Shown piece by piece: positions 4,521 through 31,233 of a DNA stretch of 35,139 nt (within the stretch, counting starts at the first letter, position 1; every line of letters begins with the position of its first letter). Below the pieces are notes generated by a model, which searched no databases, was not told the origin of the DNA, and saw only the letters and a program-made list of their open reading frames with translations. The stretch comes from a virus: UHGV virus genome UHGV-0098759. The stretch is one strand, 5' to 3'. The translations under genes and the position numbers were made by a program.

Positions 4521-4558
4521 GTTATACCTCCATAGGATTCTATGAGGGTATTTATTGA

Positions 4559-5711: not shown

Positions 5712-5816
5712 TACGCCCCCGATATTTTTATATAGTTTAATGGCAAAATTATTTAGATAAAAATAATCCCGCCTAACTCAAAAGAATTAAGCGGGATTTA
5801 TTATTAAAATTAAATT

Positions 5817-8800
5817 TTAAGAAACAGTAATACCAGTAGTGGCTTTTTTAGTTACCATTACTGTTAGATCGCTGATATATGCACTTGGGTTATAGTTGTT
5901 AACACCATCACAAATAACTTGGAATGTTAACGTTACAGCACCTTTACCCGCTGGCATGTCAATAACGCCTGTGTACATGCTGCCAGAAGTAGCCGTGCGA
6001 TCATATAGAACAGAGCCATTTTTCTTAACGATTAATCGGCAAGTGTCCCAATGATCACTACTTTCGCCACGACGAACAGACCCGTTATGGTGAATAGCTG
6101 GAATCACAATTTGGCGATCAAACTTATGATCATCTTCCACCCTTACCGTAACAGTGCCATCAGGCCAGTTTTGTTGACGATGAGGGAATTTCTTACCAAT
6201 CACCTTAACGAAATCACCCTTAACCTGAGTAGCTTCAAGCATACCCTTAATAACACAGCTAGAGTTAATCGTGACGTTGTTCAGAGTACCAGAATCAGCC
6301 GTGATATTACCTTTAACGGTAGCATTCATGAACGTAGCGGACCCGTTCTTGTTGATATGCCATCCGGTAGATCCGTTCCAGTTGGAAGACTGGATATAGT
6401 TACCAATTTTGGCGTTATCAATTGCACCGTTTACGATCTTGGCGTTAGTGATTGCCCCGTCCTGAATCTTCGCGCTGTTAATTGCAGCATTTCCGATCTT
6501 AGCGGTAGTAATCGCCGCATCATTAATCTGGGCTGTGCCAATTGCAGCATTACGAATCATCGCATTATCGAGATAAACCTTGTTACCTTCGATACCAAAC
6601 GGGCAAACATCGGTCCCGTTCTGCGGAGCTACAGCAATTTTATCAGCCGTAAAGATGATTTTAGTCGGTTGTGCCGGATCGTTGGTTGCGCTCATGTGAA
6701 TACCAGCCACGCGACCATCTGCATTAACTGCCAGATTGTATTTGCTGTTAATGGTTCCTTTCAAAGCATCGATTTTTACATCTGCTTCCTGATTCACACC
6801 AGCAATCTTGCCATCCATTTCTACCCGAACTTGATCAATCTTACTTGCGCTTGCTGCCTCACTGGTAGCAATAGCTTGTTTCAGGGTAGTAGCAGATGCG
6901 CTAACTTCTTTGGTGATATCGCCTTTCAGTTCAGCTTTAACCTGATCAATCTTAGTTGCACTGGCTTGATCACCAGAAGTAATCAGACTCTTTAAGGTAT
7001 CGGCTGAGGCTTGCACCGTCTGCCCTGTTTCGGTAGTGATTTGCTTATGCATTGCATCAATTTTAGCATCGGCATTAGCGCCAGCTTGAGCAATAGCATC
7101 AGCGATGGTTTCATCTAAGCGATCTTGTAAACCAATCAGGTCTTCCAGTGCTTCTTTGTCCTGGTCGTCCCAACTAATCGTAGACTTCATAGACATGAAA
7201 TAAGGTTCGGACCAGACAGCATCATCCATACCGAAAATATCGTAGTGAGCACCACGGATATAATAATCACCGTCAGCAATATCAAAGGAAGTATGGCTAA
7301 CACTATTCGTGCTTACTGCCCTTGCATCGGAGAAAGTGTTATCGGTTGCATACTGGATGATTGACCCTGCATAGTCATGTTCTACGTCATCTGCCCAGCT
7401 AACAAACGCAGTATTAAAGCCACCACGCGCACTAAAACCTTTCATTGGCTTATGCTGTGGGTTGATAGCCACTAAACGCGCTGGGGCGCTCTCTGAGTTG
7501 TTATAGCCCTTAGCTGATACTTCTACCGTCAGTTGACGCGAAAGGCCGTTAAACTGGTTCATATCAAGCGTATAAGTCCATGATTCAGGATCGCGGGTAC
7601 GGTACTGAATAGACTTACCAGCCTTGTTAGTCACCTTGATAATGTATGCTTCAAACAGGTCACTAAACTTGTTAGTTTCCCCGTTGATCTCAACATCTAA
7701 TTGTTGCTGATTTTCCCATTCGATAATCAGATCATTACCTTCGAAAGTTCCTGGCGTGCTACCCTGATTTTTGATTCGAATAACCGGAGTCGGCAATTCA
7801 TATGTAACAGTTGGATTCTGGTTAATCAGTTCTACCCAATCGGATCGAGCGATGATACCGAAAGCACAAACTCGGTAATCATAAGAACGATCTTTTGCCA
7901 GTGCATTGACACTGAAAATTTGCTGTGAAGTCTGTCCCAGCTTAATCCAGTTAGGTGATCCGCTTACACGGTAATCAATCTGAAAACCATAACGGTTAAA
8001 ATCTTCCGGCGCATCCCATGTCAAAGTAACGTTTTTACCGTAAATCGTCTCGCCAGTTGCCTTAATTCTGAAATTAGTAGGCTTCTGTACTGTCATTGAA
8101 TCCGGTAAACCACTTGGTCTATTGTCTGGAGTTGCCGCATAGTTCAGGTCAGTATAAACCTGAGAATTATATTCTGTGGCGGTGATAGTCATCATCCCAG
8201 CAATACCAGAATCAATCGAGCGATCAATTGCAGTAATACGCCATAAGGAATTATTCAGCTTCAATTCATCATAGGTTACGCTGATAACGTCCCATACTTC
8301 GGCAGTGAATGCGTCAGTAGTCATAAAGCTGATAACCTGAGTGATACGAGATTTATTTCGTTCAATACTCGCAAGTTTATCAATCTGGTCTTTAGACTTA
8401 ACGAAACGATATTCTACATCCTTAGCAATAATTCGACCATCTGCGCGAACAGTAGCATCGTTTTCAGCATCAGCCGGATAACGTAGCATTTGCTCTGAAT
8501 AGTCGATTGATGGTTCCTGATACATTGCGTTAATGGTATTGAAATAACCGTTAGTGCCACCTGTTTTCAGTGATACCTTACCCATCATGATATTGTCTTC
8601 ATTGAAGGTATGCTTAACAATATCAGGAGCATCCAGTTTCAGCGTAATACGTCCAAAGGATTCGAACATCACCCCGCCGAAAGTCTGCATAAGACTGGTC
8701 AAGTTCTCTTTAAAGCTGGCGTTCGGATCACATGCACCGTTTGAATGTAGGTCCATCTGGCGTACTTGTTTACGTACTTTCAGGAATGAATCAACGTTGA

Positions 8801-9563
8801 TGTTTTCAATTGGTACTGATAAACCATATTTTTCATTTGTTAGGTAGTGGAAAATCTGGTCCACGCCGTTAGTGCTAGCCTCAATAGCATTGGTTTCAAG
8901 GTTACGAATCTTTAACCCGCAAACGTCTACTGCTACCTGGCTATTTGGCTGGAGAATATCAACACCAGCAGCAAGAGATTTGTCATCACGACGTAACACA
9001 ATACACATGGTTGCAATGCCGTTACCCTTGAAAGCGTCGGTCCAGTCTGAGCCTAAATGACGTTTTGCCAGCGACAAAGCGGTGTTAGGATTCTTGCCCG
9101 TGCGGAACTCGACTTCTAATACTTTACGATATTCTTCTTTAATGTTGCCCTTATCGAGAATACCATCACGGATCGTCATGTTCTTACCAACAAGAACATT
9201 TTTATTATCAATAAAGAGTGCTTTGTAATGGTCGATTTCACCCTCGGCTACAGAGAAGATTTGCACTAGCTTATTGTTTTCTTGCTTAGAAACTGCTTTG
9301 TAAACACAGTTTGTGCCAGTGCGGGTAGTACCGAAAACGACTGGTATCACCGCTTTCGGATCGTTTGATGTTCCTAGTGTCACCGCATTATCTGGGCTTT
9401 GTACTTTAGGTGTTTTTGGTGCGCCTACAGTGGAAGCGATCAAGGTCATTGCACCAGCAGCCATACCGATAGCGACTGCGGTCATAACAGAAAATGTTGC
9501 AGCAGCAGCCATCCCAGCAGACGCACCAGCAATAACCGCGCCTACCAATATTTCAAATCCCAT
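5817..9563 (-). CDS. central tail fibre / host-specificity protein, lambda J-like
   Basis: 1248 aa; the C-terminal ~150 aa (...DHKFDRQIVIP...VIDMPAGKGAVTLTF...) aligns by eye with the lambda J receptor-binding C-terminus; sits after M/L/K-like genes; start overlaps the K-like stop (TAATG). Confidence 0.85.
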   Translation of the reverse strand: MGFEILVGAVIAGASAGMAAAATFSVMTAVAIGMAAGAMTLIASTVGAPKTPKVQSPDNAVTLGTSNDPKAVIPVVFGTTRTGTNCVYKAVSKQENNKLVQIFSVAEGEIDHYKALFIDNKNVLVGKNMTIRDGILDKGNIKEEYRKVLEVEFRTGKNPNTALSLAKRHLGSDWTDAFKGNGIATMCIVLRRDDKSLAAGVDILQPNSQVAVDVCGLKIRNLETNAIEASTNGVDQIFHYLTNEKYGLSVPIENINVDSFLKVRKQVRQMDLHSNGACDPNASFKENLTSLMQTFGGVMFESFGRITLKLDAPDIVKHTFNEDNIMMGKVSLKTGGTNGYFNTINAMYQEPSIDYSEQMLRYPADAENDATVRADGRIIAKDVEYRFVKSKDQIDKLASIERNKSRITQVISFMTTDAFTAEVWDVISVTYDELKLNNSLWRITAIDRSIDSGIAGMMTITATEYNSQVYTDLNYAATPDNRPSGLPDSMTVQKPTNFRIKATGETIYGKNVTLTWDAPEDFNRYGFQIDYRVSGSPNWIKLGQTSQQIFSVNALAKDRSYDYRVCAFGIIARSDWVELINQNPTVTYELPTPVIRIKNQGSTPGTFEGNDLIIEWENQQQLDVEINGETNKFSDLFEAYIIKVTNKAGKSIQYRTRDPESWTYTLDMNQFNGLSRQLTVEVSAKGYNNSESAPARLVAINPQHKPMKGFSARGGFNTAFVSWADDVEHDYAGSIIQYATDNTFSDARAVSTNSVSHTSFDIADGDYYIRGAHYDIFGMDDAVWSEPYFMSMKSTISWDDQDKEALEDLIGLQDRLDETIADAIAQAGANADAKIDAMHKQITTETGQTVQASADTLKSLITSGDQASATKIDQVKAELKGDITKEVSASATTLKQAIATSEAASASKIDQVRVEMDGKIAGVNQEADVKIDALKGTINSKYNLAVNADGRVAGIHMSATNDPAQPTKIIFTADKIAVAPQNGTDVCPFGIEGNKVYLDNAMIRNAAIGTAQINDAAITTAKIGNAAINSAKIQDGAITNAKIVNGAIDNAKIGNYIQSSNWNGSTGWHINKNGSATFMNATVKGNITADSGTLNNVTINSSCVIKGMLEATQVKGDFVKVIGKKFPHRQQNWPDGTVTVRVEDDHKFDRQIVIPAIHHNGSVRRGESSDHWDTCRLIVKKNGSVLYDRTATSGSMYTGVIDMPAGKGAVTLTFQVICDGVNNYNPSAYISDLTVMVTKKATTGITVS

Positions 9564-9982
9564 TATTCACCCCCGAATCTATAAACTTGTTCATAGTCAA
9601 TGTCTGAAACAGGAATGGTCATCCAGATACCATCTTCTTCAACGAGGCCATAACCGGAATAATGAGGAACTACGGAATAATAATTACGGTTTCCTAATTT
9701 GTGGGCTGTGACCAGTAAATCGCCGTCCTGTAAATCATCAGTGACTAATTTGAAATGTTTCTTAATTGGTTGAAGGATATTTGAATACCCGCTTAATTCT
9801 TTGCAGATTTTCAAGCCTTCTTCTTTAGTTGAATATTTTTTATAAAGAGAATTATATAGATCAGTGCCAGCGAGAATATCGATGATCTTACATGCAATTA
9901 AATTGCAATCATTCTCACCCTGAACGAACTCCTGACCTATTAAAGAATTGATGTAATCGGTGATAAGCCTAGTTTTTAGCAT
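9563..9982 (-). CDS. tail tip assembly protein, lambda K-like (possible NlpC/P60-type Cys)
   Basis: Position between the L-like and J-like genes; GGAGG RBS before ATG 9982 (track ORF extends to 10138 but overlaps the upstream gene); Cys in ENDCNLIACK. Confidence 0.55.
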   Translation of the reverse strand: MLKTRLITDYINSLIGQEFVQGENDCNLIACKIIDILAGTDLYNSLYKKYSTKEEGLKICKELSGYSNILQPIKKHFKLVTDDLQDGDLLVTAHKLGNRNYYSVVPHYSGYGLVEEDGIWMTIPVSDIDYEQVYRFGGE

Positions 9983-10028: not shown

Positions 10029-10682
10029 TTATTTCTTCGATGAATGCCACCTGCTTTCTGATTGCCAGCGACCCGCCCTTGAGAAGAATAGATCGTTCTC
10101 GTTTCCAACATAGGAACGGTGGATACCATCGGAGGCATGACTACGAGCGTTTTTATCTAGAACTTCCCAGATACTATTAAGCTGAAATTCTGATTCGTTT
10201 TTACACTCATCATCTTCATGTTCGATGTTAATCCCGATGGAATCGACTACCCCACGGAAAACAGGGTAAGTGGTTTCAACTTTGCCCGTGTTGGGGTTAA
10301 GGAAAACCATCTCGATTTTCACATCTGATTTATCGAATTGCTTGTTACGAATCAGGGTAATGTATTCTTCGCGAACGTTAGAAACAGTTACGTTGATCCC
10401 GTTGTTGTTGATCTCCTTCTCTTCGGTATTCGATGAGATTTGAAGAAAATCACCCGTTGCGAGATATGTAAAACCGTTATAGTCCAAATCGAAATACCCA
10501 TCTGTAAGCCGTAGAACGTCCCCTGACGCTGTTATCACTTCGATAATGTGAAACATCGATCCAGTGGAGAAAAGCTGCGGTAGCGTCAATCTAGACACAT
10601 TCTGACCTGTCTGGTCGTTGTAGACCTCGATGAAGTCCAGATTAGTGCATAGTTTGCTGAATGATTCCTGAATAGTTGCCAT
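10029..10682 (-). CDS. minor tail protein, lambda L-like
   Basis: Synteny; start MATIQ at 10682 overlaps the upstream stop (TAATG). Confidence 0.5.
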   Translation of the reverse strand: MATIQESFSKLCTNLDFIEVYNDQTGQNVSRLTLPQLFSTGSMFHIIEVITASGDVLRLTDGYFDLDYNGFTYLATGDFLQISSNTEEKEINNNGINVTVSNVREEYITLIRNKQFDKSDVKIEMVFLNPNTGKVETTYPVFRGVVDSIGINIEHEDDECKNESEFQLNSIWEVLDKNARSHASDGIHRSYVGNENDLFFSRAGRWQSESRWHSSKK

Positions 10683-11242
10683 TATACATTCTCCACTAAT
10701 TCGAATTTCATCTTGCCAATCTGGGCGATCTTCCAATCGATATTTTCAGTTTTGAGAACAAATTCACCTTCTACGTTCTGATACTTGATCACCTCACCCG
10801 CTAGGACGTTCTGACGCAAGTTAGGGAAGAGTTTCATTTCACCACCTGATTTCACATCTTCGGTGATCGTGTAGATTTTCTTGTGGTTCTCAAACTGGAT
10901 GATAGTTCCTGCTTTCAGTGTTCCGGTGAAGTTGGAGATTCTCACCTTACGCCCACCGCGAGCAGTACCAGCAGCAGCCGTAACCATCTGGCGTACATCA
11001 CCTGTATATTTTGAAAAGTAAGACAGTGGCACACTAAAAGGACGACCAAAAAGGTGACGTGCTACAAATTCTTTTACTTCGTTAATATCCTGAGCCATGA
11101 AATTAGCTGTAAATTCTGCTTCATAAAAATGAATACCAGTAAAGCGACGCTGGAACTTACCAGAAATAGATTGCGCCTTGAAGAAAGGTTGTTTTGATTT
11201 AAGAGTAAAATCTGTGATTTTAATATTCTTGGATTTGAACAT
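10682..11242 (-). CDS. distal tail protein, lambda M-like position
   Basis: Immediately downstream of the tape measure gene; ATG at 11242 preferred; track ORF starts at GTG 11278 inside the hairpin. Confidence 0.45.
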   Translation of the reverse strand: MFKSKNIKITDFTLKSKQPFFKAQSISGKFQRRFTGIHFYEAEFTANFMAQDINEVKEFVARHLFGRPFSVPLSYFSKYTGDVRQMVTAAAGTARGGRKVRISNFTGTLKAGTIIQFENHKKIYTITEDVKSGGEMKLFPNLRQNVLAGEVIKYQNVEGEFVLKTENIDWKIAQIGKMKFELVENV

Positions 11243-11249
11243 AGAAAAA

Positions 11250-11291
11250 GCCCCCATAGTTTTATGATTATTTATCACTATGGGGGCTTTT
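11250..11291 (-). terminator. strong stem-loop (11-bp stem GCCCCCATAGT/ACTATGGGGGC) plus U-run between tape measure and the next tail gene
   Basis: Perfect 11-bp stem with T/A-rich flanks; the 3' arm contains the GGGGG Shine-Dalgarno of the downstream gene. Confidence 0.55.
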
Positions 11292-11293
11292 AA

Positions 11294-13726
11294 TTACATC
11301 TTACGACGCTGAACGTCTTCTATCGCCTGAGCAACAAACTTAGCGTGACGTTTGATAGCATCCATAACCATCTTGTCTGAGCTATTAACGTTGCCGTTAA
11401 TGTTCAAAGGCGCATTAACTTCAATCGGCTGAGAGTTACCACCGCCTGATTTTTGAGCAGATAAGAAGTCTTTCAAATCACCGTTAGTACGCTGATCAAC
11501 TACTCGTTCACCCTTATCAAGCAACCATGTACCCTCACGAGGGATGTTATCAATACCATCATGAGCCATACCGCTAACGTTAGTAGACTTGATGTTTGCG
11601 ATGTTCCCCATGTTCTGAGAAACAGCCAATGCAGCAGCAGCAATTTTTTGACCTGTGGTGACGTTGGTCGGATCGTTCCATGCATCGGTAGCAGCCGTCC
11701 ACATGTTCACCGTCGCTTGTCCAATAGAGAATGCCTTATGAGCATTGAAAGCCATCTGCATAGCCTTTGTGTTTTCCTGCCCGAAGAGAGTCATTGCAGC
11801 AGCAAAACCGCCATACATATCATCGGCTATTGACTGGCGAGCATCAGCATATTTCTTTTCAATTGCAGCCATCCGTTTTTGATGGTTTTCATTGAGTTTT
11901 TCTAATGCTTCCATCCGTTTAGCCGGATCGGTGATCCCATCAATCTTGAGTAGTTTATCGGTCTTATAATCTTGTTCGGCTTCCGATTTCTCTTTATCGA
12001 TTGCATTAAATTTAGCAAACGGATTATTTGAGTCTTGATAATCAAATCCGCTGGTTAATTGATTGGTTTTAAAACCATCCATTCCCTGTAAAGCATTGCC
12101 AATTTGACTATAATTCTGATTGGTATCATTCACACGACGCATATATTCATCGTAGGAGATAGCCTTACCATCAAGTAACCGTTTATGGCTTTCTAACTCA
12201 TTGTCCCTGATTTGTTGCAATTGTGTTAAAGCATTCAGCGCATCAACAGGATCAGCACCTAAGACCATTTTGTATACGTTTTCAGTATTCTGATCGATTA
12301 AGGATTGGCGTTTCGCGGCTGCGTCTTGTTGAGAGATTAAGCCCAGATCTAAAGCAGTATCCAAATCTTTCAAGCTGGCTTCTAACTGCTTGTTTTGAGA
12401 AGCAATAGACGCTGCAACTTGCCCTTGCAATTTAACATCAAGTGCATTCAGACGCTTGATTGCATCCTCACGTTCTTTCTGTGCTTTTTCTGCGGCTTCC
12501 TTAGCCTTTTTAGCTGCCTCTTCCGCTTTCTTGCGTGCTTCTTCCTCGGCTTTCTTCTCGTTGCCAGATTTACCCAATGATTCTGGTCTTACTGGTTTAT
12601 TTGGTAGAGTTAAATCAGTGTTAGGATCTGCCTTGCGTGTCAGATGTTCACCAGCATCTACGACAATCAGAGCACCATTTTTCTTATAAGACCCACCAAA
12701 ACGTTTCTTAAATCCTTCTACATCAAAGCCAGCAGTACGAGGATCGACACCAGCACCACGGATCGCGGCCTTTTCCCAATCTGCTAGATTATTCCAACGC
12801 TTTTCTTTATTGTACTTGTCAATAATCTTTTGAGCGTCTTTATGGTTGGCGTTAAGAATACCACCAGTTGCGGTCTTGCCTTCTTTATTCAGTCGATCTA
12901 ATGCCCTGAATAGAGAACTCTTTTCCCAATCAATATTAAACCAGTCAAATAACCAGTTTAAGCTATCAACCAAAGGACCAGAAATGGTCATGCCGACACC
13001 TTTCAGGTTATTTTCCAGCTTATTGATATTTTGAGAAAATTTATCATATTTTTTAGCGTTTTCTTCGGTGACGTTAACAGATTGATTCTGAATAGCGATC
13101 ATCGCCTCTTGAGCACTATTATATTTCTCAAGCTGGCTGGTCATATGACTTGAATCACTGGCTAAAGATTCCATCATGAACTTGATTTCAGCCATTGATT
13201 TTCCGGCTTTCTTCATGTCATAGAACACTTGGATCGCCGCTTTCATACCACCTTGCGGATCAGTCATGAAGTGAGCATAGTTTTCTAACTTAAGGCCAAC
13301 CGATTCTAAGTCATCAGCAATACCACCACCGTTAGCCCATGCATCACCCATCTTATCTAAGGTGTCTTTGTTGATATCACCGAATTTTTCAACTGTTAGG
13401 CCAGTACCAGAAAATTCCTTTTCCAGTCTTTGAAGGGATTCAATCGAGAGTCCGGTCGCCTTAGATACTTCTGAATATTGTTTAACGTATTCCGCGCCAG
13501 CTTTAGCGGCTGCAACCACTGCGGTCGCAACTAAGCCGATACCACCAGCAGCCAAACCAGCAGAGCCAGCGATCCCACGAAGAGATCCAGTCAGACCAGA
13601 TAAGCCACCACCAAAATCAATACCACTTGCCTTTTCAGACAAACTATCGAGAAGGTCGGCGGCTTCATTGGTACTTCTCCTTAGACCTTTATTATCCCCT
13701 TCTATTGTTACTATATGTTTTGTCAT
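11294..13726 (-). CDS. tail tape measure protein
   Basis: 810 aa, extended coiled-coil and low-complexity composition; follows G/T-like chaperone ORFs; ATG at 13726. Confidence 0.8.
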   Translation of the reverse strand: MTKHIVTIEGDNKGLRRSTNEAADLLDSLSEKASGIDFGGGLSGLTGSLRGIAGSAGLAAGGIGLVATAVVAAAKAGAEYVKQYSEVSKATGLSIESLQRLEKEFSGTGLTVEKFGDINKDTLDKMGDAWANGGGIADDLESVGLKLENYAHFMTDPQGGMKAAIQVFYDMKKAGKSMAEIKFMMESLASDSSHMTSQLEKYNSAQEAMIAIQNQSVNVTEENAKKYDKFSQNINKLENNLKGVGMTISGPLVDSLNWLFDWFNIDWEKSSLFRALDRLNKEGKTATGGILNANHKDAQKIIDKYNKEKRWNNLADWEKAAIRGAGVDPRTAGFDVEGFKKRFGGSYKKNGALIVVDAGEHLTRKADPNTDLTLPNKPVRPESLGKSGNEKKAEEEARKKAEEAAKKAKEAAEKAQKEREDAIKRLNALDVKLQGQVAASIASQNKQLEASLKDLDTALDLGLISQQDAAAKRQSLIDQNTENVYKMVLGADPVDALNALTQLQQIRDNELESHKRLLDGKAISYDEYMRRVNDTNQNYSQIGNALQGMDGFKTNQLTSGFDYQDSNNPFAKFNAIDKEKSEAEQDYKTDKLLKIDGITDPAKRMEALEKLNENHQKRMAAIEKKYADARQSIADDMYGGFAAAMTLFGQENTKAMQMAFNAHKAFSIGQATVNMWTAATDAWNDPTNVTTGQKIAAAALAVSQNMGNIANIKSTNVSGMAHDGIDNIPREGTWLLDKGERVVDQRTNGDLKDFLSAQKSGGGNSQPIEVNAPLNINGNVNSSDKMVMDAIKRHAKFVAQAIEDVQRRKM

Positions 13727-14421: not shown

Positions 14422-14466
14422 TATTGTTTCCTCATTAATAGTGATTACGCTGTATTTATTTAGAAT

Positions 14467-14973
14467 TTAAGAGATTTTCAAAGTCTGCTTAGTGCCAGTT
14501 TTCTTAATATTTGTTAGGAAAGCAGCCGGAGGATTGCTTAACCAATAGTAATGAAAACCACTTTGCATACTGTTATAAGGAACAGTGACAGCAGCACCAC
14601 CCAAATTAACGGTTATATTCCCCGCTCTACCGTTCTGGAGATATACAGCCATAGTAGGAGTACCGCCATTGAATTGACCAACGATAACGCCAACCAGACG
14701 CCCTACGCCCACGTTTTCGGGGTTCTCCATAGATCCTTTGCTTTGCATACCGGAAACAGGATAGTTTGAAGCAGTTACACCCCAGTTATTACCCAATGAA
14801 GTAGACCACGATGCAGTAGCTACAACCGTATCCATACCACGACCAGCCATTGCCGACATATTACGCGGAGCCGGAACTTTTAAAGCTGTTAATGCTTCTT
14901 TCATCCATCGCTTACCCGTCACCGATACAGCAGATGACCCGATCCAGCCAGGAACTTTAACGACATTTGCCAT
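14467..14973 (-). CDS. hypothetical Gly/Ser/Ala-rich tail-region protein
   Basis: ORF with GGAG RBS; lies between the tail-tube-like gene and the G chaperone. Confidence 0.45.
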   Translation of the reverse strand: MANVVKVPGWIGSSAVSVTGKRWMKEALTALKVPAPRNMSAMAGRGMDTVVATASWSTSLGNNWGVTASNYPVSGMQSKGSMENPENVGVGRLVGVIVGQFNGGTPTMAVYLQNGRAGNITVNLGGAAVTVPYNSMQSGFHYYWLSNPPAAFLTNIKKTGTKQTLKIS

Positions 14974-14993
14974 TTTGATTACTCCAATAAAAA

Positions 14994-15020
14994 AGCCCCA
15001 CCATTAAGGCAGGGCTTAAA
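14994..15020 (-). terminator. intrinsic terminator after the tail-tube extension (AGCCCUGCC-loop-GGUGGGGCU, then U6)
   Basis: Stem contains G-U wobbles only when read on the minus-strand RNA; homologous in sequence to the terminator at 20926-20955. Confidence 0.55.
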
Positions 15021-15021
15021 A

Positions 15022-15147
15022 TTAATTCTTAGCCTTGCGGCCTCGTTTTGCTGTGGCTTTCGCCGTAACTTCTTCTACTTCTGGAATCACCACCGCTTCA
15101 TGTTCCGGCAGTGGTTCCGGTTCTGGTAAAGGAAGTTCTTCGTTAGT
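15022..15147 (-). CDS. in-frame post-TGA extension of the tail-tube protein (38 codons; ...EVEEVTAKATAKRGRKAKN)
   Basis: TGA at 15148-15150 is followed by 38 sense codons in frame ending at TAA 15022-15024; no ATG inside; homologous to the capsid extension. Confidence 0.5.
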   Translation of the reverse strand, partial: TNEELPLPEPEPLPEHEAVVIPEVEEVTAKATAKRGRKAKN

Positions 15148-15621
15148 TCATCCGGCAGTGAAGATTTGCTGTTTCAGCGGAGCACCATCAACAGCAAAGG
15201 TAAACTCTTTCGTTACCACTTCTTCATCGCCACCGTTCATAGCAACTTTAGAGATGAAGCCGTTGAAAGCTGTGCGAATACCAGTCTGTTTTGCTGCATC
15301 TACATAGTATTCAATCTTAATCTGAATTCGAGTACCGTCTTCGGCAGCTTTAATGAGCTTCTCGTGTACCGCATCACCAGGAATGTAGTTAACGGTCAGA
15401 GTCAGATCAGGAACGTTCAGTTTACCTACCAGCTTACGGTTATACTGAGAAGAGAAGGATTTAACTTCTACAGTGCCGCGCTCGATACCAGTTTCAGGAA
15501 AACCAGCACACTCTTTAATTTCTTCATAGCTTTCATGTGCAAGATTGGTGTTAGTGGTATCGGCGTGATAGAACATACTTACCAGACCACCAGTAAAAAT
15601 ATCTTTAAATTGCTGAGACAT
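15148..15621 (-). CDS. tail tube (major tail) protein-like, paralogue A
   Basis: 157 aa; canonical position upstream of the G/T chaperones; paralogous to the N-terminal 165 aa of the 19357..20190 product (shared DIFTG, LTLT.N, AED.T blocks); RBS AAGGGG; ends in TGA. Confidence 0.55.
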   Translation of the reverse strand: MSQQFKDIFTGGLVSMFYHADTTNTNLAHESYEEIKECAGFPETGIERGTVEVKSFSSQYNRKLVGKLNVPDLTLTVNYIPGDAVHEKLIKAAEDGTRIQIKIEYYVDAAKQTGIRTAFNGFISKVAMNGGDEEVVTKEFTFAVDGAPLKQQIFTAG

Positions 15622-15678
15622 AGAATTACCCCTTAATTAAAATTGTTTATAACGGGGGAACTAGTCCCCCGACTTTTA

Positions 15679-18600
15679 TTATTTAGTTGCTTTCAGTTCG
15701 GCAATTTCTTTCTGTAATGCTTCGATCTGTGTTTTATATTTGGCGTCCATTTCCTGCATAGCTTTAATAATCAAGGCATTAACAGCAGAGTTAGAAATAG
15801 TCTTGATTGCTTCCGGTTGTTCTGGATCTTCTGTGGATTGAATACCTACTGCTTCCGGCAATACTTTTTCCAGATCCTGAGCAATAATACCTACTTCGCG
15901 TTTAATCACCGTGTCATCGGAAAGAGATTTAACTTTATCGTAGGTGTAGACTTTCAGTGAGTTTACTTTCTCTAATGCACCGTCCTGTAATTCTTCCTTG
16001 TTAATCTTCAAACGGGAGTCAGAGCGAATGTAAACATCGTTAAAGCTACCGTTACGACCTGCGCTAAAATCACCCGCAGCGTTAAAGTCAAAGTTGGCGT
16101 CGTGAACGTTTAGGCGAGCTAAAGCATTGGTAATAGTACCACTAGGAACATGCACACCCATTGCCGCAATATGATATTTTCCCCAATGAGTCGCTTTCCA
16201 GATGTTATGAGCGGAATCGGTTGAGTTCGGACAGTCTACGAGGATTCCGGCAGAACGATCACGCCAGCTAGCCCAGCTACCACCAGCAACATTACCACGA
16301 ATCAAACCTTTATCAGACCCGCCGACAGTCCCCGCCTCAAGATGAATCATTTTATCAGCAAGTTTCCAAGTTTGACCTTGTTTCTGACCACGGAAGCGGA
16401 TAACACCAGCATCATCGCAGTACATCAAACCTAATTCTAAACCGTTCGGATCTCTAAACCATAAATGCTTATTACCACTGCGACGAAACTCAATATCAGC
16501 ACCGCCAACCTGTATATTGCTCGCAGTTTTTAATGTACCAGCAACAGAGAACAGGATAGGACCAGTTCCACCGTTTGTACGTTCGGTATACCAATGATAA
16601 CTAGTAGCATCCTTACATTCAAAAACCTGTTTGCGTTGCTCGTTACCCCATGTATGTAAGGTAAATTGAGACGCAGATCCACGATTAGCATCAAAGGCAA
16701 TCTCACCGGATTCTACACGCACGAAGCCTTTAAAACGTGCTGTGATATTGCCAGTACCCATAGCGCGTTCAGTGGTAAAGTGTGCACCCTGACTGTCTTC
16801 AATCTGTAGGATGTTATCGCGAGCGTTATTACTATCGCCCCAATGGTTAAACCGGAAGTAATCGCGGGATTGTCCAGCACCAGCATCAAATGTTAAATGT
16901 TGACCTTTGATGTAAGCGTTGCCAGAGAATCGAGCGGCCTTGCTTGCGCGTTCTAGAGTTAATACATCTTCGTTTCCATCACCACCTAATTGAACGTTAC
17001 CGGAAGTAAGATCGTAGATAAAAGGTCGATATGTATTCCAACCACCAAATCTATCATTTTCGGCAGTAGACAACAGATAAACTTTACCACCATCATTTCG
17101 CCAGAATGCACCATACTTACCGTAAATCATACGGAATGCATCAGCGTTAGCGGAATAATATTGACCATTGGTATATACAATTTTTGTTTTTCCTGTAGTC
17201 AAATTTACTTGTCCACTACCTTCCAAATCAAATGAGTTAGCACCAACATCATTACGCCACACAAAACCATCACTAGTACCATCCGCATGACCGATATAAC
17301 CACTACGTTGGTTTTTACCATCACGACGATCCCACCACGCCATATATGCAGCTTGACCAGTCTGTCGATGTAAAGTCATCGCATTACCACTACCGTGCAA
17401 TTCCATTTTACCAGTAATTACATATCCTTTATAATTACCCGGTATTGCACTATTAGAATCAATTCTAATAACTTCTGTAGAATCTGTAGCACCAGTAGCA
17501 AGACGATATACAGCACCCTGAACGGTTTCATGCCAAACCATTTCGTTATAGTTGCTACGGAATTTACGAATATATTTCCGTCCAGTACCTTTATCATTAC
17601 TTAGATGAACAATGTCATAGCTGTTTTGTGTGTTATCATCAAAACTTAACACACCACGTTTATTTTCAGTATTAAAAAGAGTTACGTTGCGACCACCGAT
17701 AACACCAACGGAAGGTTTAATTAACGTGGCTTCCGGCGTATCATAAACCGTCAAACTTACATAAACAGATTTCCCATATTCGACAATAACGTTATCGGTA
17801 TAACGCTGATATTTCACGTAGATATCATAGTTATCACCGGAAGTATTGACAGCAAATACCTCAAAATCTTTGTTTGTATTTCTACGGTATGCAATTACGT
17901 TAAGACCTTTAGGTCTATCGTTACCACTACGCAGAAGAATTTCTACTACGTCAACCTGATCATATGCCGTAACGTTGTAACCATTACCACCATGAATACG
18001 GAAAAACACACTACGCCCGTTTTGTGGAATTGTTGCGGTTGCCAATTTGAAATATGCAGATACGTTTTCGCTAGAATTGGGAACAGACATAACGACGTTT
18101 TTAACAAACATCTTATCAACTTCGGCTTTGGTGTATGCACCAATCTCGCCAGGAGTCGGCTTATCACCTTCGTGATACATCTTATAGCTAAAGTTCTTCT
18201 GTCCTTCTCTATCAAAACCATAGGTTTCAACACGAGATCCACCAGATGCATAACGGAAAGTAAATCCGCGACCGTGCGCTTTACCGGAAGAGTGAGGAAC
18301 GTTAAGAGTTAGATCCATGAGTCCATCTTGACCATTGGTACGGAAAGCACCAAAGTAGTTAAGATCTCGTGATGTCTGGTCTTCCAGATAGTTAGCTGTC
18401 TTGCTTAACAGATACCCACCATGCTTAGTATTGGTATTCTTCTTGATGTAAAGAGCATCATTGCTACCTTCAATACCATCAATTCGTTTGTTAGCGGCTG
18501 CAATTGCGGCATCAGTAGAAGATTTATTCTGGTCTACCTTGTTGTTAATTGCGGTATGGTTGCTATTAACAGTGCCAGTAAGATTGGTAATCTTAGTATC

Positions 18601-19281
18601 CGCGTCTTTCTTATTGTCGGAAACAGTCTTTTCGATCGCTGTCTTGTTAGCTGCAACCGTGCTAGTTAAGCTAGAAATTTTGTTATCTGCATCGGTTTTA
18701 TTTGCAGTAACAGTTTTAGTTAAGTTGCTAACGTTGGTGTTAGTGGTATTAACCTTGTTGTTAATCGCGGTGTTATTGTCAGTGACCGTTTTCGTTAAAG
18801 CTGCATGTTTGCTATCTGCATCAGATTTGTTTGCGGCAACGGTTCTTTCAATTGCGGTCTTATTCGCAGATACGGTCCCCGTAAGGTTATTGATCTTAGT
18901 GTCGGCATCGGTTTTATTTGCCGTAACTGTCTGGGTTAAGTTACTAACAGTGGTGTTGGTAGCATCAATGCGCTTATTGGTCGCTGTATCTTTCGTGGTA
19001 ATAGTCTGATTCAGTTCAGCTTTAGCACTAGCCAGATTATTAGCGGCCTCTTGTTTGTTGGAAGCAATAACACGGTCAGTGCTAGTTTTGTTATTGTCTA
19101 CTTTCGTGTTTAAAGCATTATGACTTTCTGGGGAAACGCTGATTTGAACTACTGCGTTATTTTTGTCTTTGGTGTAAATTACATGGTCTGCCATCTGAAT
19201 AGCGATTTCACCGACCTGTAATTGTTCCGGCGTTGGTTTTTTACCAGCCGTTTGTGTGCGTTTAAATTGGATTGATTGCAT
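15679..19281 (-). CDS. long tail fibre with heptad-like shaft repeats and C-terminal intramolecular-chaperone-like domain
   Basis: 1200 aa; N-terminal third has repeats of type TVTANKTDADTKINNLTGTV; C-terminus (...SDSRLKINKEEL...IEALQKEIAELKATK) resembles self-cleaving chaperone domains of phage fibres; KPTP.EIGA motif at N-terminus and internally. Confidence 0.75.
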   Translation of the reverse strand: MQSIQFKRTQTAGKKPTPEQLQVGEIAIQMADHVIYTKDKNNAVVQISVSPESHNALNTKVDNNKTSTDRVIASNKQEAANNLASAKAELNQTITTKDTATNKRIDATNTTVSNLTQTVTANKTDADTKINNLTGTVSANKTAIERTVAANKSDADSKHAALTKTVTDNNTAINNKVNTTNTNVSNLTKTVTANKTDADNKISSLTSTVAANKTAIEKTVSDNKKDADTKITNLTGTVNSNHTAINNKVDQNKSSTDAAIAAANKRIDGIEGSNDALYIKKNTNTKHGGYLLSKTANYLEDQTSRDLNYFGAFRTNGQDGLMDLTLNVPHSSGKAHGRGFTFRYASGGSRVETYGFDREGQKNFSYKMYHEGDKPTPGEIGAYTKAEVDKMFVKNVVMSVPNSSENVSAYFKLATATIPQNGRSVFFRIHGGNGYNVTAYDQVDVVEILLRSGNDRPKGLNVIAYRRNTNKDFEVFAVNTSGDNYDIYVKYQRYTDNVIVEYGKSVYVSLTVYDTPEATLIKPSVGVIGGRNVTLFNTENKRGVLSFDDNTQNSYDIVHLSNDKGTGRKYIRKFRSNYNEMVWHETVQGAVYRLATGATDSTEVIRIDSNSAIPGNYKGYVITGKMELHGSGNAMTLHRQTGQAAYMAWWDRRDGKNQRSGYIGHADGTSDGFVWRNDVGANSFDLEGSGQVNLTTGKTKIVYTNGQYYSANADAFRMIYGKYGAFWRNDGGKVYLLSTAENDRFGGWNTYRPFIYDLTSGNVQLGGDGNEDVLTLERASKAARFSGNAYIKGQHLTFDAGAGQSRDYFRFNHWGDSNNARDNILQIEDSQGAHFTTERAMGTGNITARFKGFVRVESGEIAFDANRGSASQFTLHTWGNEQRKQVFECKDATSYHWYTERTNGGTGPILFSVAGTLKTASNIQVGGADIEFRRSGNKHLWFRDPNGLELGLMYCDDAGVIRFRGQKQGQTWKLADKMIHLEAGTVGGSDKGLIRGNVAGGSWASWRDRSAGILVDCPNSTDSAHNIWKATHWGKYHIAAMGVHVPSGTITNALARLNVHDANFDFNAAGDFSAGRNGSFNDVYIRSDSRLKINKEELQDGALEKVNSLKVYTYDKVKSLSDDTVIKREVGIIAQDLEKVLPEAVGIQSTEDPEQPEAIKTISNSAVNALIIKAMQEMDAKYKTQIEALQKEIAELKATK

Positions 19282-19299
19282 CTAATCACCTCACATAAA

Positions 19300-19325
19300 A
19301 CAGGAATAAGGGAGGCGTTAACCTC
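19300..19325 (-). terminator. hairpin (GGGGAGG-UUAACG-CCUCCC) with U-rich tail between the 277-aa gene and the fibre gene
   Basis: Perfect 6-7-bp GC stem read on the minus strand, followed by UUAUUCCUGUUUUAU. Confidence 0.4.
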
Positions 19326-19356
19326 CCCGCGTCATGTTTTATTTAGGTAAGCAATC

Positions 19357-20190
19357 TTAATACTCACCGAAGTCGATTCTATCAGTCTTAGCCACTGCGC
19401 CAATTTCGCTAGGTGTCGGTTTCTCATTGGTGGAATATACCTTGATCCATTCAGAGCGACCGTTTTCCTGAATATTTCGGACACGTAAACGTGGTGCACC
19501 GGAAGTATTACAGGTTAATTGCCATGCGCCATGCTCATTAGCTTGAAGGTGAATTAATGATGTATCAGCACCATAAGGGTTAGTGCTAGCCGTTCCTTTG
19601 TAGGTTACGAAGCGGTTTCCTGTCAGAGATTCACTATCAATAGGTCCGGTGAATGGGCTAACGCCTGAGCCTACGCCATAATCCCCTTGTCGCAGAATTT
19701 TTCCCTCGGTCGCTATACCCCTTGCTAGAATCCCGCCATCTGGTTCAAGTTTAAATTCCAGTGTTACAGCTTTGTTATCACTACCACGGGTTTTATGTGA
19801 TGTGACGTAAGCATCGAATATACAAAAGTACCCTGTGTTAGCAGCACTATAGCCAGAGTTCACAACATAGAACATACGGAAGCGTAAAGGTGTTTTATCC
19901 TCTACCGCTTTCATCAACATTGCTTGATGTTCATCGTCAAGAACACGGTTTAATGTGAGTGTTGTCGGTTCCAGTCTACGATAACCAGCAAGTTTCCCCG
20001 TAGCGTCCTGATCGTACTCTTCCAGAGTTTCTATCTCTGTGGATTCGGTTAGCGTAGGGAATGCTGCGATGTTCTCCATAGAACTAAAGCTAGGATCGAA
20101 AAAGTCGACCTGATTGTCTATCTGGTTAGAGATCGACACTTCAACATGTGATCCAGTGAAAATATCTAAGTTATCTTGTGTAATATTCAT
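19357..20190 (-). CDS. tail-tube-like protein, paralogue B, with C-terminal fibre-repeat domain
   Basis: N-terminal ~165 aa paralogous to the 15148..15621 product; C-terminus ends with KPTPSEIGAVAKTD, the same motif found in the adjacent fibre; RBS AAGGGG. Confidence 0.5.
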   Translation of the reverse strand: MNITQDNLDIFTGSHVEVSISNQIDNQVDFFDPSFSSMENIAAFPTLTESTEIETLEEYDQDATGKLAGYRRLEPTTLTLNRVLDDEHQAMLMKAVEDKTPLRFRMFYVVNSGYSAANTGYFCIFDAYVTSHKTRGSDNKAVTLEFKLEPDGGILARGIATEGKILRQGDYGVGSGVSPFTGPIDSESLTGNRFVTYKGTASTNPYGADTSLIHLQANEHGAWQLTCNTSGAPRLRVRNIQENGRSEWIKVYSTNEKPTPSEIGAVAKTDRIDFGEY

Positions 20191-20896: not shown

Positions 20897-20925
20897 AGTT
20901 ACCCCCTTTATGGAGTATTTACATA

Positions 20926-20955
20926 CAAAAAAGCCCCGCCAATAACGGCAGGGCT
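20926..20955 (-). terminator. intrinsic terminator after the capsid extension (AGCCCUGCC-GUUAUU-GGCGGGGCU, then U6)
   Basis: 9-bp stem with one G-U wobble formed only on the minus-strand RNA, followed by a T6 run. Confidence 0.6.
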
Positions 20956-25152: not shown

Positions 25153-25200
25153 AATTACCCCTTATTTAATTGTTATTGGATTAACAATATTTAGGAGCAA

Positions 25201-25218
25201 GCCGCCCCGAAGGACGGC
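25201..25218 (-). other. RNA hairpin with UUCG tetraloop on the minus-strand transcript, between terL and the next gene
   Basis: Minus-strand reading GCCGUCC-UUCG-GGGCGGC pairs with a G-U wobble; the plus-strand reading has a C-A mismatch; no U-run follows. Confidence 0.4.
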
Positions 25219-27137: not shown

Positions 27138-27225
27138 GTAATTACCCTCATTACGAAATATGAAGGTATTTATTAAATTGTTGATATTTTGATAAATACG
27201 GGTATTAAGATTTAAGGGGGGGTGT

Positions 27226-27312
27226 ATGCTAATTAATCAGCAAGAAAGAGATGAATTAGAATTAGCCTTGTCTTGTCTTGTCTTGTCTTGTCTTGTCTTG
27301 TACCGATCATGA
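27226..27312 (+). CDS. 29-codon leader ORF with strong RBS that reads through the (CTTGT)7 repeat and stops at TGA
   Basis: ATG at 27226 preceded by AAGGGGGGG; frame is +1 out of register with the long downstream ORF; the repeat tract lies inside it. Confidence 0.35.
27267..27301 (+). repeat. perfect pentanucleotide tandem repeat (CTTGT)x7
   Basis: Read directly: cttgt repeated seven times from 27267 to 27301, at the 5' end of the 191-aa ORF. Confidence 0.95.
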
Positions 27313-27853
27313 ATATCGTTTGCCAGTAAAACATAAGCACTTAAAGACCGACTACACAACATCTGGCTTTAGTCGTGAGGAAGCTAAACAGATTTTAATC
27401 GAGTTGTATCGTGATAATGGGTATACCGATATTCATAACTTCTTTAAGAAGCATCGCACATCACAGACAGAGTTTCAGCGAGTCCGTGAGTGGTTTGATT
27501 TTGACATTAAGCGATTCTATCGAGTAGATGACGGTCCTATCTATCGGTTGCAGTGGACACCGATCAGGGAAGTGCTTAAACAGAAGAGATTGAATCATGC
27601 CATTACACGCTATCGTAACGTGGCTTTTAAGAAAGACTATGGTGATACAAGAGAACTATTCGTTGAACTCGCTAACGTGAAGTACAGCCACTATTACAAC
27701 GATCCTAAGTCCTTCTTTGAAGTGCTTCGCAAGGTTGATATAAGTCGGGGTACATATTATTCACGGTTGAAGAAGTACGGGATTAAGGTTGAGTTCTTTA
27801 TGTCAGTTGACGATGGAGAACTTTTTCCTATAAAATCTAAGTCCTCTAAATAA
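27278..27853 (+). CDS. tandem-HTH protein with two resolvase-type HTH-like modules; start codon uncertain
   Basis: Track ORF starts at TTG within the repeat; no in-frame ATG for about 175 codons; C-terminal module (GTYYSRLKKYGIKVEFFMSVDDGELFPI) is paralogous to the 86-aa and 60-aa proteins. Confidence 0.5.
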   Translation: MSCLVLSCTDHEYRLPVKHKHLKTDYTTSGFSREEAKQILIELYRDNGYTDIHNFFKKHRTSQTEFQRVREWFDFDIKRFYRVDDGPIYRLQWTPIREVLKQKRLNHAITRYRNVAFKKDYGDTRELFVELANVKYSHYYNDPKSFFEVLRKVDISRGTYYSRLKKYGIKVEFFMSVDDGELFPIKSKSSK

Positions 27854-29396: not shown

Positions 29397-29864
29397 TTAC
29401 AGCATATCTAAGCCTTCGTCGTAACCGTAGAAGCCATTCTGAGAAGAAAAACAGATTGGTGCGTAGTCGTCGTCATCTTCGTCTTGTTCATCTTCTTCTG
29501 GGGCTTCCTGAGCGGTTTCTTTACCGTAGTTAAACATTGCTTCATCCAGTTCATAGACAGTAACGAAGCTACCCAGATCAATGTCACCGGAACGGACTTG
29601 AAACGGCAGATCATCACGAACAATAATTGCTGGTAGATTCTGGTACTTTAAGCGTTCTTCATCGGTGAAGACGTTAACAACAATGGTCGGCTTCTTATTA
29701 CGGCAAAACGCATACCATGCACTAGAGAAATGGGATTCATCAGAGTTGAAAAGGATGTTATAACCACGTTCACGGAACATCTTCATTAACTTGTCATTGT
29801 GGAAGCTATCAGAATCCAGACCCAGAAGGATAAAAGGAGTAGTGGTAGTCATTTTATGGTTCAT
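29397..29864 (-). CDS. hypothetical protein with strongly acidic C-terminal tail
   Basis: ORF with GAGGA RBS; C-terminus EAPEEDEQDEDDDDYAP is highly acidic; no domain recognised. Confidence 0.5.
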   Translation of the reverse strand: MNHKMTTTTPFILLGLDSDSFHNDKLMKMFRERGYNILFNSDESHFSSAWYAFCRNKKPTIVVNVFTDEERLKYQNLPAIIVRDDLPFQVRSGDIDLGSFVTVYELDEAMFNYGKETAQEAPEEDEQDEDDDDYAPICFSSQNGFYGYDEGLDML

Positions 29865-30753: not shown

Positions 30754-30782
30754 TTGACACTGTGTAGGAACAGTGGTATAAT
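30754..30782 (+). promoter_or_regulatory. perfect-consensus sigma70 promoter with extended -10 (TTGACA-N17-TGgTATAAT)
   Basis: TTGACA at 30754-30759, 17-nt spacer, TATAAT at 30777-30782 preceded by TGG; directly downstream of the iterons and upstream of an AT-rich tract. Confidence 0.65.
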
Positions 30783-31233
30783 TGACAATTCGAGATAAAT
30801 ATGTTATAATATTTGTATTGAAAGTAAAAATTTACCGATTTTCCTTCCTATTGTTATTATCCTGTTAAATTGTTATATGTCTGTTAAGGTTTGGATCTGA
30901 GAGAAAATCCTGTAACAAATCTTTACAATTCATAGCTCAATTAATACTCACCGCTTTAGCAAAAAGTGCTATGCATTTTTCTAAATTGATTAAATATACA
31001 TCAATTTGGTTAAATCGCGTTCTTCGCTTTAGCAATTCGTGCTGTGGTTTAACACATTTAACACGCCTGATAACATCTGAATAACATTTTAACATATCTC
31101 TGTTATAAATACATATATAAGAGATAAATGTGAGGGGTTGAAAAATTAAAAAACAATCCCCGTATAAATAACAATGAGCGGTTAACGCTCTTTTTTTTAA
31201 GAAATAATTAATCCAGATTTAGGAGGATTCAAG

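Follow-up and report, generated by a model that had tools for sequence, protein, structure and literature searches.

The window analysed here, meaning the whole stretch of 35,139 nucleotides (nt) recorded as UHGV virus genome UHGV-0098759, is an Escherichia coli prophage of about 35 kb, and the element in question lies at the junction between its tape measure protein gene and the gene for its distal tail protein (Dit), which is the first gene of the tail-tip block. All of the genes at this junction are carried on the minus strand. The stop codon of the tape measure coding sequence and the start codon of the distal tail gene both agree with the annotation of E. coli PI7 made by the Prokaryotic Genome Annotation Pipeline, and the N-terminus of the distal tail protein is kept among its homologues. 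The features of the junction, in the order in which they are transcribed, are as follows:

11294..13726, minus strand: tape measure protein gene, 810 aa, with its stop codon TAA at 11296-11294 (phrog_13674 at E 2e-62, and nine other tape-measure PHROGs)
11277..11291, minus strand: 5' arm of the hairpin, AAAAGCCCCCAUAGU, an A tract and an 11-nt core (read directly; also supported by the inverted repeat, minimum free energy folds and compensatory changes)
11261..11276, minus strand: 16-nt loop, GAUAAAUAAUCAUAAA (from the folds; the bases outside the box are variable among relatives)
11269..11275, minus strand: ATAAATA box, core TAAATA at 11274-11269, 26 nt 5' of the ATG, invariant in 17 relatives and promoter-like
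11246..11260, minus strand: 3' arm, ACUAUGGGGGCUUUU, with the Shine-Dalgarno sequence GGGGG at 11255-11251 (read directly; inverted repeat; folds)
11243..11249, minus strand: U tract UUUUUCU, 3' of the GC core and doubling as the spacer to the ATG, with four or five U in all clade members
10682..11242, minus strand: distal tail protein gene, 186 aa, ATG at 11242 (phrog_1302 at E 2.6e-16; weak match to PF21430, pb9 B domain)

Read as RNA, the junction is UAA-UU-AAAAGCCCCCAUAGU-(GAUAAAUAAUCAUAAA)-ACUAUGGGGGCUUUU-UCU-AUG. A hairpin between the two genes had been reported in a first-pass annotation made from the sequence alone, and its presence is confirmed by direct reading, by folding, by the inverted repeat and by the covariation described below. 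The 11-bp core then reported is borne out (11287-11277 paired with 11260-11250, seven of the pairs being G-C), although the full perfect stem is longer, four flanking A-U pairs extending it to 15 bp (11291-11277 with 11260-11246), which makes it the longest perfect inverted repeat within the window. The distance of 3 nt given between the stop codon and the hairpin is not correct, since the core begins 6 nt after the stop, or 2 nt after it when the A-U pairs are counted. The two signals attached to the stem hold up: the GGGGG ribosome-binding site of the ATG at 11242 does lie in the 3' arm, within a helix of -25 kcal/mol, and the stem is followed by UUUUUCU, as in an intrinsic terminator. This GGGGG is located 8 nt 5' of the ATG and is the sole candidate Shine-Dalgarno sequence of the distal tail gene, G-rich sequences of this type being typical of the phage and found before most of its genes; the AUG itself remains outside the helix. 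The 57-nt junction folds at -24.7 kcal/mol (z-score -6.44) and an 86-nt context at -30 kcal/mol (z-score -7.24), a value equalled by none of 200 shuffles.

Searches for known elements at the junction returned little. A consensus terminator scan did not call the hairpin, the sole cause being the tool's loop limit of 8 nt. Rfam gave no match at gathering score over the whole window, with only sub-threshold terminator-like matches at the junction, and no second copy of the hairpin arm sequence was found within the window, which speaks against a repeated or mobile element. A scan for sigma-70 type promoters at the junction found none, and CCCCATAG in the 5' arm, considered as a sigma-32 -10 motif, was dropped as a matching -35 is absent.

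The pairing is maintained over a considerable range of relatives. The hairpin is kept in 32 prophages from IMG/VR whose distal tail proteins are 97-100% identical to that of the window, and the only differences are a C-to-U change giving a U.G pair, the length of the C or G run and U4 as against U5. Relatives from E. coli and Salmonella with distal tail proteins 68-92% identical retain the layout of stop codon, hairpin, U tract and ATG, and their stems differ (GCCCCCATAGT, GCCTCCATAGT, GACCCCCTAGTTGA, ATACCCCCTAGTTGA, ATACCCCCTTGGTT), with a 3' arm that matches each of them, as it also does in further relatives with the stem sequences GACCCCCUAGUUGA, AUACCCCCUAGUUGA and AUACCCCCUUGGUU. At one locus (L123) GCCUCC pairs with GGAGGC, a double change in which the Shine-Dalgarno sequence becomes the canonical GGAGG and the 5' arm has a C-to-U change, and in Salmonella-type relatives an inner TTGA/TCAA helix cuts the loop to 6-8 nt. 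Each relative's junction folds singly into the hairpin.

A covariance model built on four gap-free sequences served for the alignment of 17 distinct junctions; a MAFFT alignment analysed with RNAalifold had been set aside because the stems were misaligned and only six pairs recovered. In the resulting alignment 98.8% of the cells pair and 8 of the 15 pairs are changed on both sides, which was matched by none of 500 shuffles, and in slid controls, where the partner was shifted by 1-3 columns, pairing was 39-63% with 0-1 covarying pairs. Wherever a stem pair is changed on one side only, the sense RNA has U.G or G.U at that place, a pattern more in keeping with a helix in the mRNA than with a DNA palindrome. 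The pattern of substitutions, taken over these relatives, shows that the pairing of the hairpin is under selection. In one further locus, L003 (IMGVR_UViG_2690316210_000001, ~1-96), an inverted repeat lies directly against the hairpin at its 5' base, in place of the end of the tape measure gene; this repeat, GGTGATGCTGCCAACTTACTGATTTAGTG as its reverse complement, is presumably the IS1 terminal inverted repeat.

The loop contains the heptamer ATAAATA, which is invariant over the 17 distinct sequences while the adjacent loop bases are variable. The loop of a terminator has no reason to be conserved in sequence. The same heptamer lies 26-39 nt 5' of several other genes of the window, on the coding strand every time, namely those of the tail chaperone (ATG 14421), the large terminase (ATG 27137) and a small-terminase-like protein (ATG 33735), a gene in the lysis region (ATG 4520) and those starting at ATG 1119 and ATG 29864. 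In the zone from -48 to -18 of 38 gene starts, ATAAATA is the top 7-mer (7 genes) and TAAATA the top 6-mer (12 genes), compared with a median of 1 gene for permutations of the same composition in that zone, and TAAATA occurs 25 times on the coding strand of the window as against 8 on the opposite strand. Further genes are preceded by nTAAATA variants, often straight after a terminator hairpin. TAAATA was also considered as a host sigma-70 -10 element and rejected because the T at -7 is missing.

More distant relatives, with distal tail proteins 31-57% identical, were collected by a profile search of IMG/VR, and 30 distinct junctions were compared. TAAATA is found 21-34 nt (51 nt in one locus) 5' of the distal tail ATG in 27 of them. 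Eighteen have the tape measure gene upstream, and in 14 of these a terminator hairpin is followed by the box, the general layout being stop codon, GC-rich hairpin (with a clear U tract in about half), TAAATA, about 12 nt, Shine-Dalgarno sequence and ATG. The parts are thus the same as those of the window but are sequential instead of nested, and the Shine-Dalgarno sequence is free. In the other 12 junctions the upstream gene is a divergent endolysin gene and the spacer measures 50-95 nt, so that the distal tail gene needs a promoter of its own inside this short spacer; within it nothing is conserved but TAAATA, joined in 11 of the 12 by another copy on the opposite strand. Hairpins in L034-L038 were considered as cases of ribosome-site occlusion in RNA and rejected, the upstream gene being divergent and the structure a DNA-level palindrome with two opposed ribosome sites and boxes.

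Among the 15 A4T2 hexamers, TAAATA has the fewest copies (130) over 24 distinct distant loci, and 32% of these are placed 15-40 nt before a Shine-Dalgarno sequence and an ATG-started open reading frame (ORF), compared with 1-13% for the other A4T2 hexamers. A profile of 57 sites has a fixed TAAATA core, an A before the core in about half, no T preference at the eighth position, no -35 signal and a preference for A 6-8 nt past the box (+11 and +13 from the first T). The large terminase (TerL) junction gives an independent case: relatives at 50-52% identity have a canonical terminator (hairpin and U8) there and then TAAATA, 23 nt from the ATG. The hexamer is depleted elsewhere, biased towards one strand, kept at a fixed distance, found in divergent pairs and placed after terminators; taken as a whole, these features argue for a promoter element, and a terminator followed by a box is, to judge from these layouts, the normal punctuation of the phage family. 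In L076, L080 and related IMG/VR loci the distal tail and hub genes form a two-gene unit which sits between a divergent endolysin gene and a serine recombinase at the prophage end, so that in this branch the tail genes are split over the integrated genome.

We propose, with a probability of roughly 0.55, that the junction is a compact transcription-unit boundary in which three signals share 51 nt, a terminator and a promoter being nested so that translation of the downstream gene would depend on the promoter. The hairpin and U tract after the tape measure stop would act as an intrinsic terminator and 3'-end hairpin for RNA coming from the chaperone and tape measure unit, part of which probably ends at the U tract; that upstream transcription reads into the hairpin we infer from the tape measure gene on the same strand ending 6 nt upstream. 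In RNA that reads through, the only Shine-Dalgarno sequence of the distal tail gene would be held in the -24.7 kcal/mol stem and translation would be poor. The ATAAATA of the loop would serve as a -35-less promoter box, with RNA beginning 6-8 nt downstream at the following position:

11261..11263, minus strand: predicted transcription start, A residues 6-8 nt past the box and just 5' of the 3' arm (from the A preference)

RNA started from the box would carry only the 3' arm, the helix could not form and the open ribosome site would be translated; an RNA started at the predicted site folds at -1.6 kcal/mol, against -24.7 for the long RNA. The promoter role of the box, the start site, the termination and the difference in translation between long and short RNA are what we infer from the layout and its conservation. 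If the box is a promoter, the distal tail and tail-tip genes would be on a transcript of their own which lacks the 5' arm and in which the ribosome site is free, and the hairpin would insulate two transcription units instead of setting a ratio inside one operon. The distal tail and tail-tip genes would then rely on this promoter, insulated from the chaperone and tape measure unit. The remaining members of the tail-tip block are:

10682..10029, minus strand: hub N-domain gene
9982..9563, minus strand: DUF6950 gene
9563..5817, minus strand: J-like tip protein gene, 1248 aa

Related arrangements recur at other places in the window:

14453..14459, minus strand: ATAAATA box, 31 nt 5' of the tail assembly chaperone ATG 14421
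20916..20955, minus strand: terminator-then-box after the capsid gene, with a hairpin at 20955-20932 and U6, then GTAAATA at 20922-20916, 19 nt to ATG 20896
5750..5798, minus strand: terminator-then-box after the J-like gene, with a hairpin at 5798-5765, then CTAAATA at 5756-5750, 38 nt to ATG 5711
25188..25218, minus strand: hairpin at 25218-25201 after the large terminase gene, then CTAAATA at 25194-25188, 35 nt to ATG 25152
4524..4555, minus strand: ATAAATA at 4555-4549, its 3' end plus CCCUCAUAG pairing with the Shine-Dalgarno sequence GGAGG of ATG 4520; hairpin at 4551-4524
27143..27173, minus strand: ATAAATA at 27173-27167, then CCUUCAU pairing with the Shine-Dalgarno sequence GAGGG of the large terminase ATG 27137

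The first of these boxes is likely the start of the unit that ends at the junction hairpin. The last two resemble the junction, in a weaker form, in that the ribosome site is paired with bases at or next to the box: the 4520 junction folds at -11.2 kcal/mol (z-score -3.1) with its 5' arm and at -1.0 without it, and the large terminase junction at -10.5 kcal/mol with its 5' arm and at -2.5 without it, the pairing between box region and Shine-Dalgarno sequence at TerL being kept in close relatives. A box on the opposite strand at 27192-27198 forms a divergent pair with that at 27173-27167. It precedes an ATG at 27226, well placed behind a Shine-Dalgarno sequence GGGGGGG, and between this ATG and a 191-aa ORF in another frame (27278..27853) there is a perfect (CTTGT)x7 repeat at 27267-27301 (plus strand). 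Eight copies of CTTGT would put the ATG in frame with the 191-aa ORF, and PI7 likewise has seven copies, which suggests that the gene is phase-variable; a single-sequence structure model of the 191-aa ORF had a predicted local distance difference test (pLDDT) score of 43, too poor for use.

A wider reading is also possible, which we put forward tentatively and as less probable than the account of the junction itself. In a widespread family of prophages, small, temperate and siphovirus-type, from E. coli, Salmonella and relatives, structural and lysis genes may be expressed from many -35-less TAAATA promoters that resemble the late promoters of T4, without a recognisable gp55 or gp33, and at the Dit, TerL and 4520 junctions the boxes may be combined with ribosome-site hairpins, an arrangement that would restrict translation to RNA begun at the box. 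If so, an unrecognised phage factor would redirect the host RNA polymerase or, less likely, the prophages would depend on a co-infecting T-even-type phage, and the element between tape measure and Dit would be the extreme case, with a promoter nested in the loop of a terminator.

Several results weigh against these interpretations. The late promoters of T4 are read by gp55 together with gp33 and the gp45 clamp, and when the gp55 and gp33 of the DCP80 record described below were compared by phmmer with all ORFs of the window, nothing was obtained below E 0.3. The window ORFs of unknown function, taken as candidates for a sigma factor or activator, gave no informative match to Pfam, PHROG or PDB, and the AlphaFold model of a 155-aa early-region ORF (pLDDT 71) has an alpha/beta fold that is not sigma-like. 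No sigma factor or activator that could read the box emerged from these searches. ATAAATA in total is not above chance in the window (14 copies against 12.2 expected), some copies fall within genes, and it is the placement alone that is unusual. Some relatives (L072, L073, L121 and the DCP80 record) have no box at the distal tail junction, and several of the hairpins that follow the tape measure gene in distant relatives are without a clear U tract. The loop of 16 nt is long for an efficient intrinsic terminator, and in the covariation analysis the alignment had been fitted to the structure and the sequences are related, so that the counts do not represent independent events.

Both E. coli and Shigella conserve the 155-aa protein (29397-29864, minus strand). 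The model, a small domain without a significant match in PDB, carries a disordered acidic tail in which the motif DDDYAPICF is reminiscent of the acidic tip at the C-terminus of SSB. DCP80 (PQ671644.1, Escherichia phage) is a 141-kb record filed as T-even (Gaprivervirus) which includes a siphovirus head and tail module of about 22 kb related to the prophage of the window. It looks scrambled or chimeric, with rIIA annotated four times and several T4-like genes duplicated, and being a scrambled assembly of T4-like pieces and a siphovirus module it was not used as a link between the box and T4 factors.

The role suggested by the first-pass annotation was that of an internal attenuator or translational throttle which lowers expression of the tail-tip genes relative to those upstream. 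The hairpin, the U tract, the locked Shine-Dalgarno sequence and a pairing under selection are all consistent with part of this, but a simple throttle is not supported in the form suggested, which overlooked the invariant ATAAATA of the loop. In its plainest form, in which the tape measure gene ends in an intrinsic terminator or attenuator that reduces tail-tip transcription, the Shine-Dalgarno overlap is a by-product of packing and the loop has no promoter role, we consider the idea unlikely, if far from negligible. A GC-rich stem with a U tract 6 nt past the stop codon agrees with it, as do the GC hairpins (about half with a U tract) that follow the tape measure stop in nearly all distant relatives and the terminator-like sites of the late region, which occur at about twice expectation (30 against 14.7). 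It leaves without explanation, however, both the invariant heptamer amid variable loop bases and the hexamer that stands at a constant distance ahead of many genes of the window and of distant relatives, also in divergent spacers and behind terminators that look efficient; moreover, a 16-nt loop is unfavourable for termination and, with the sole Shine-Dalgarno sequence locked, read-through RNA would yield almost no distal tail protein, which is an essential protein. The locked site could instead point to translational coupling, whereby the hairpin blocks independent initiation at the distal tail gene and is melted by the ribosome that ends the tape measure gene, giving a fixed ratio of the two proteins from one mRNA. 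The conserved pairing would suit this, as would the positions of the stop codon, 2 nt before the extended stem, and the start codon, 3 nt after it, flanking the base of the helix. A ribosome that has a stop codon in the A site opens the RNA no farther than about 5-8 nt past that codon. No part of the 5' arm falls within the upstream ORF; the arm starts 2 nt past the stop for the A-U pairs, or 6 nt for the GC core, and reaches to 17 nt, so that a terminating ribosome should melt the A-U pairs, with the first of the GC pairs at most, while most of the 11-bp core stays closed; the loop box and the U tract would also be unexplained, and in relatives with the sequential layout the Shine-Dalgarno sequence is free. 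Coupling is for these reasons distinctly improbable.

The conserved box itself allows two further explanations. Cleavage of the AUAAAUA loop by an endoribonuclease, RNase E-like or encoded by the phage, would allow the arms to separate and unmask the Shine-Dalgarno sequence, and an AU-rich single-stranded motif on a stable stem that recurs 17-40 nt before many start codons is the kind of site that might be processed. We think this very improbable, as divergent spacers of about 50-95 nt with the motif on both strands fit two promoters better, the motif comes after canonical terminators, where a new promoter is needed, and the exact hexamer is conserved and depleted elsewhere, unlike the loose preferences of RNase E. 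Just as improbable is a role at the level of DNA, with the palindrome as the operator of a dimeric regulator flanking the box, or as the relic of a divergent-promoter junction, and without an RNA role. Palindromes with opposed ribosome sites and boxes do occur in the relatives with divergent genes, and the window has an example at 27166-27199, but the other strand of the junction has neither a gene nor a second box, the one-sided changes are G.U on the sense RNA only and become A/C mismatches when compared as DNA half-sites, and the spacing of the arms and the bulges vary while the pairing is kept and the U tract is always retained after the stem. The nested terminator and promoter thus remains our preferred account of the junction.

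Apart from the junction, the prophage encodes a large serine recombinase, small and large terminase subunits, a portal protein, a protease-capsid fusion, a siphovirus-type tail and an endolysin, together with a T-even-like long tail fibre and a gp38-like adhesin. The junction is present in 56 of 5426 complete E. coli genomes, chromosomal every time, and in E. coli PI7 (NZ_CP074033.1) the prophage is located inside hicB, beside ydcR, at ~0.75-0.79 Mb. In PI7 the large terminase gene exceeds the copy in the window by about 113 nt and is annotated as a frameshifted pseudogene. Near-identical phage genomes were not found by megablast, and there was no close isolate among the phage collection; blastn and tblastn against phages returned only short tape measure segments and the one DCP80 record, and a scan of genome contigs gave one locus only. 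The fibre gene (15679..19281, minus strand; phrog_1699 at E 2e-145) and the adhesin gene (14467..14973, minus strand; PF21721) flank a 157-aa major-tail-like gene (15148..15621), and there is a second major-tail-like gene at 19357..20190, so that a fibre module within 14467-20190 appears to have been inserted in the tail-tube region. A perfect sigma-70 consensus promoter, TTGACA-N17-TATAAT, is located in a low-GC, ORF-poor stretch at ~30770-31210 (plus strand), followed downstream by hairpins and then by a terminator, GAGCGGTTAACGCTC and U8. A role in immunity or as a source of small RNA may be considered for this stretch, which has no Rfam match.

Should the proposed account of the junction be correct, tail genes that are usually taken as one long late operon would here be separately promoted units, and an element of 51 nt would end one unit, start the next and block translational cross-talk between them. 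The boxes would point to a class of promoters in enterobacterial prophages, and they would advise caution, in that phage gene dosage may not be predictable from operon order alone. For annotators, TAAATA 17-40 nt before an ATG, often just past a terminator, could serve as the motif for unit starts in this phage family.

The closest precedent is found in T4, where the genes e (lysozyme), soc, 49 and I-TevI are carried on a long early RNA in which the ribosome site is hidden and internal late promoters, with a -35-less A/T box TATAAATA, give translatable RNA (PMC3014915). Those genes have the Shine-Dalgarno sequence in the 3' arm of a stable helix, one that only RNA derived from upstream can form, and their box lies inside the hairpin or at its 5' arm, so that RNA begun at the promoter lacks the 5' arm (PMC3014915); the same geometry is predicted here. 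The differences are that the phage is a temperate siphovirus-type E. coli prophage, that the boundary is between two structural genes and not between early and late transcription, and that the helix of the junction has the features of a terminator, namely its position after a stop codon and the U tract. If the proposal holds, the principle of T4 gene e, silent on a long RNA and active on a short one, would extend to temperate phages and to a terminator hairpin.

Considered as a promoter, the box resembles the T4 late type in being a single A/T-rich element without a -35 and with an A-rich start region 6-8 nt downstream, and in occurring in many copies before structural genes, some of them as divergent pairs; it differs in that nTAAATA is not strictly TATAAATA, with no T preference at the position of the first T in T4, and in that homologues of gp55 and gp33 were not found among the window ORFs. 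Considered as an intrinsic terminator, the hairpin has the GC-rich stem, the U tract directly after it, the location just past a stop codon and, as in bidirectional terminators, an A tract upstream of the stem, but its loop is 16 nt instead of the usual 3-8, the loop sequence is conserved and the 3' arm doubles as a ribosome site. The coupling of coat to replicase in MS2 is similar in that a downstream ribosome site is closed by an upstream segment; there, however, the 5' partner forms part of the upstream coding sequence and elongating ribosomes open it, whereas here it follows the stop codon. The best-supported view, going by these likenesses, is that the junction element would be a variant both of the intrinsic terminator and of the gate typified by T4 gene e, two kinds already known.

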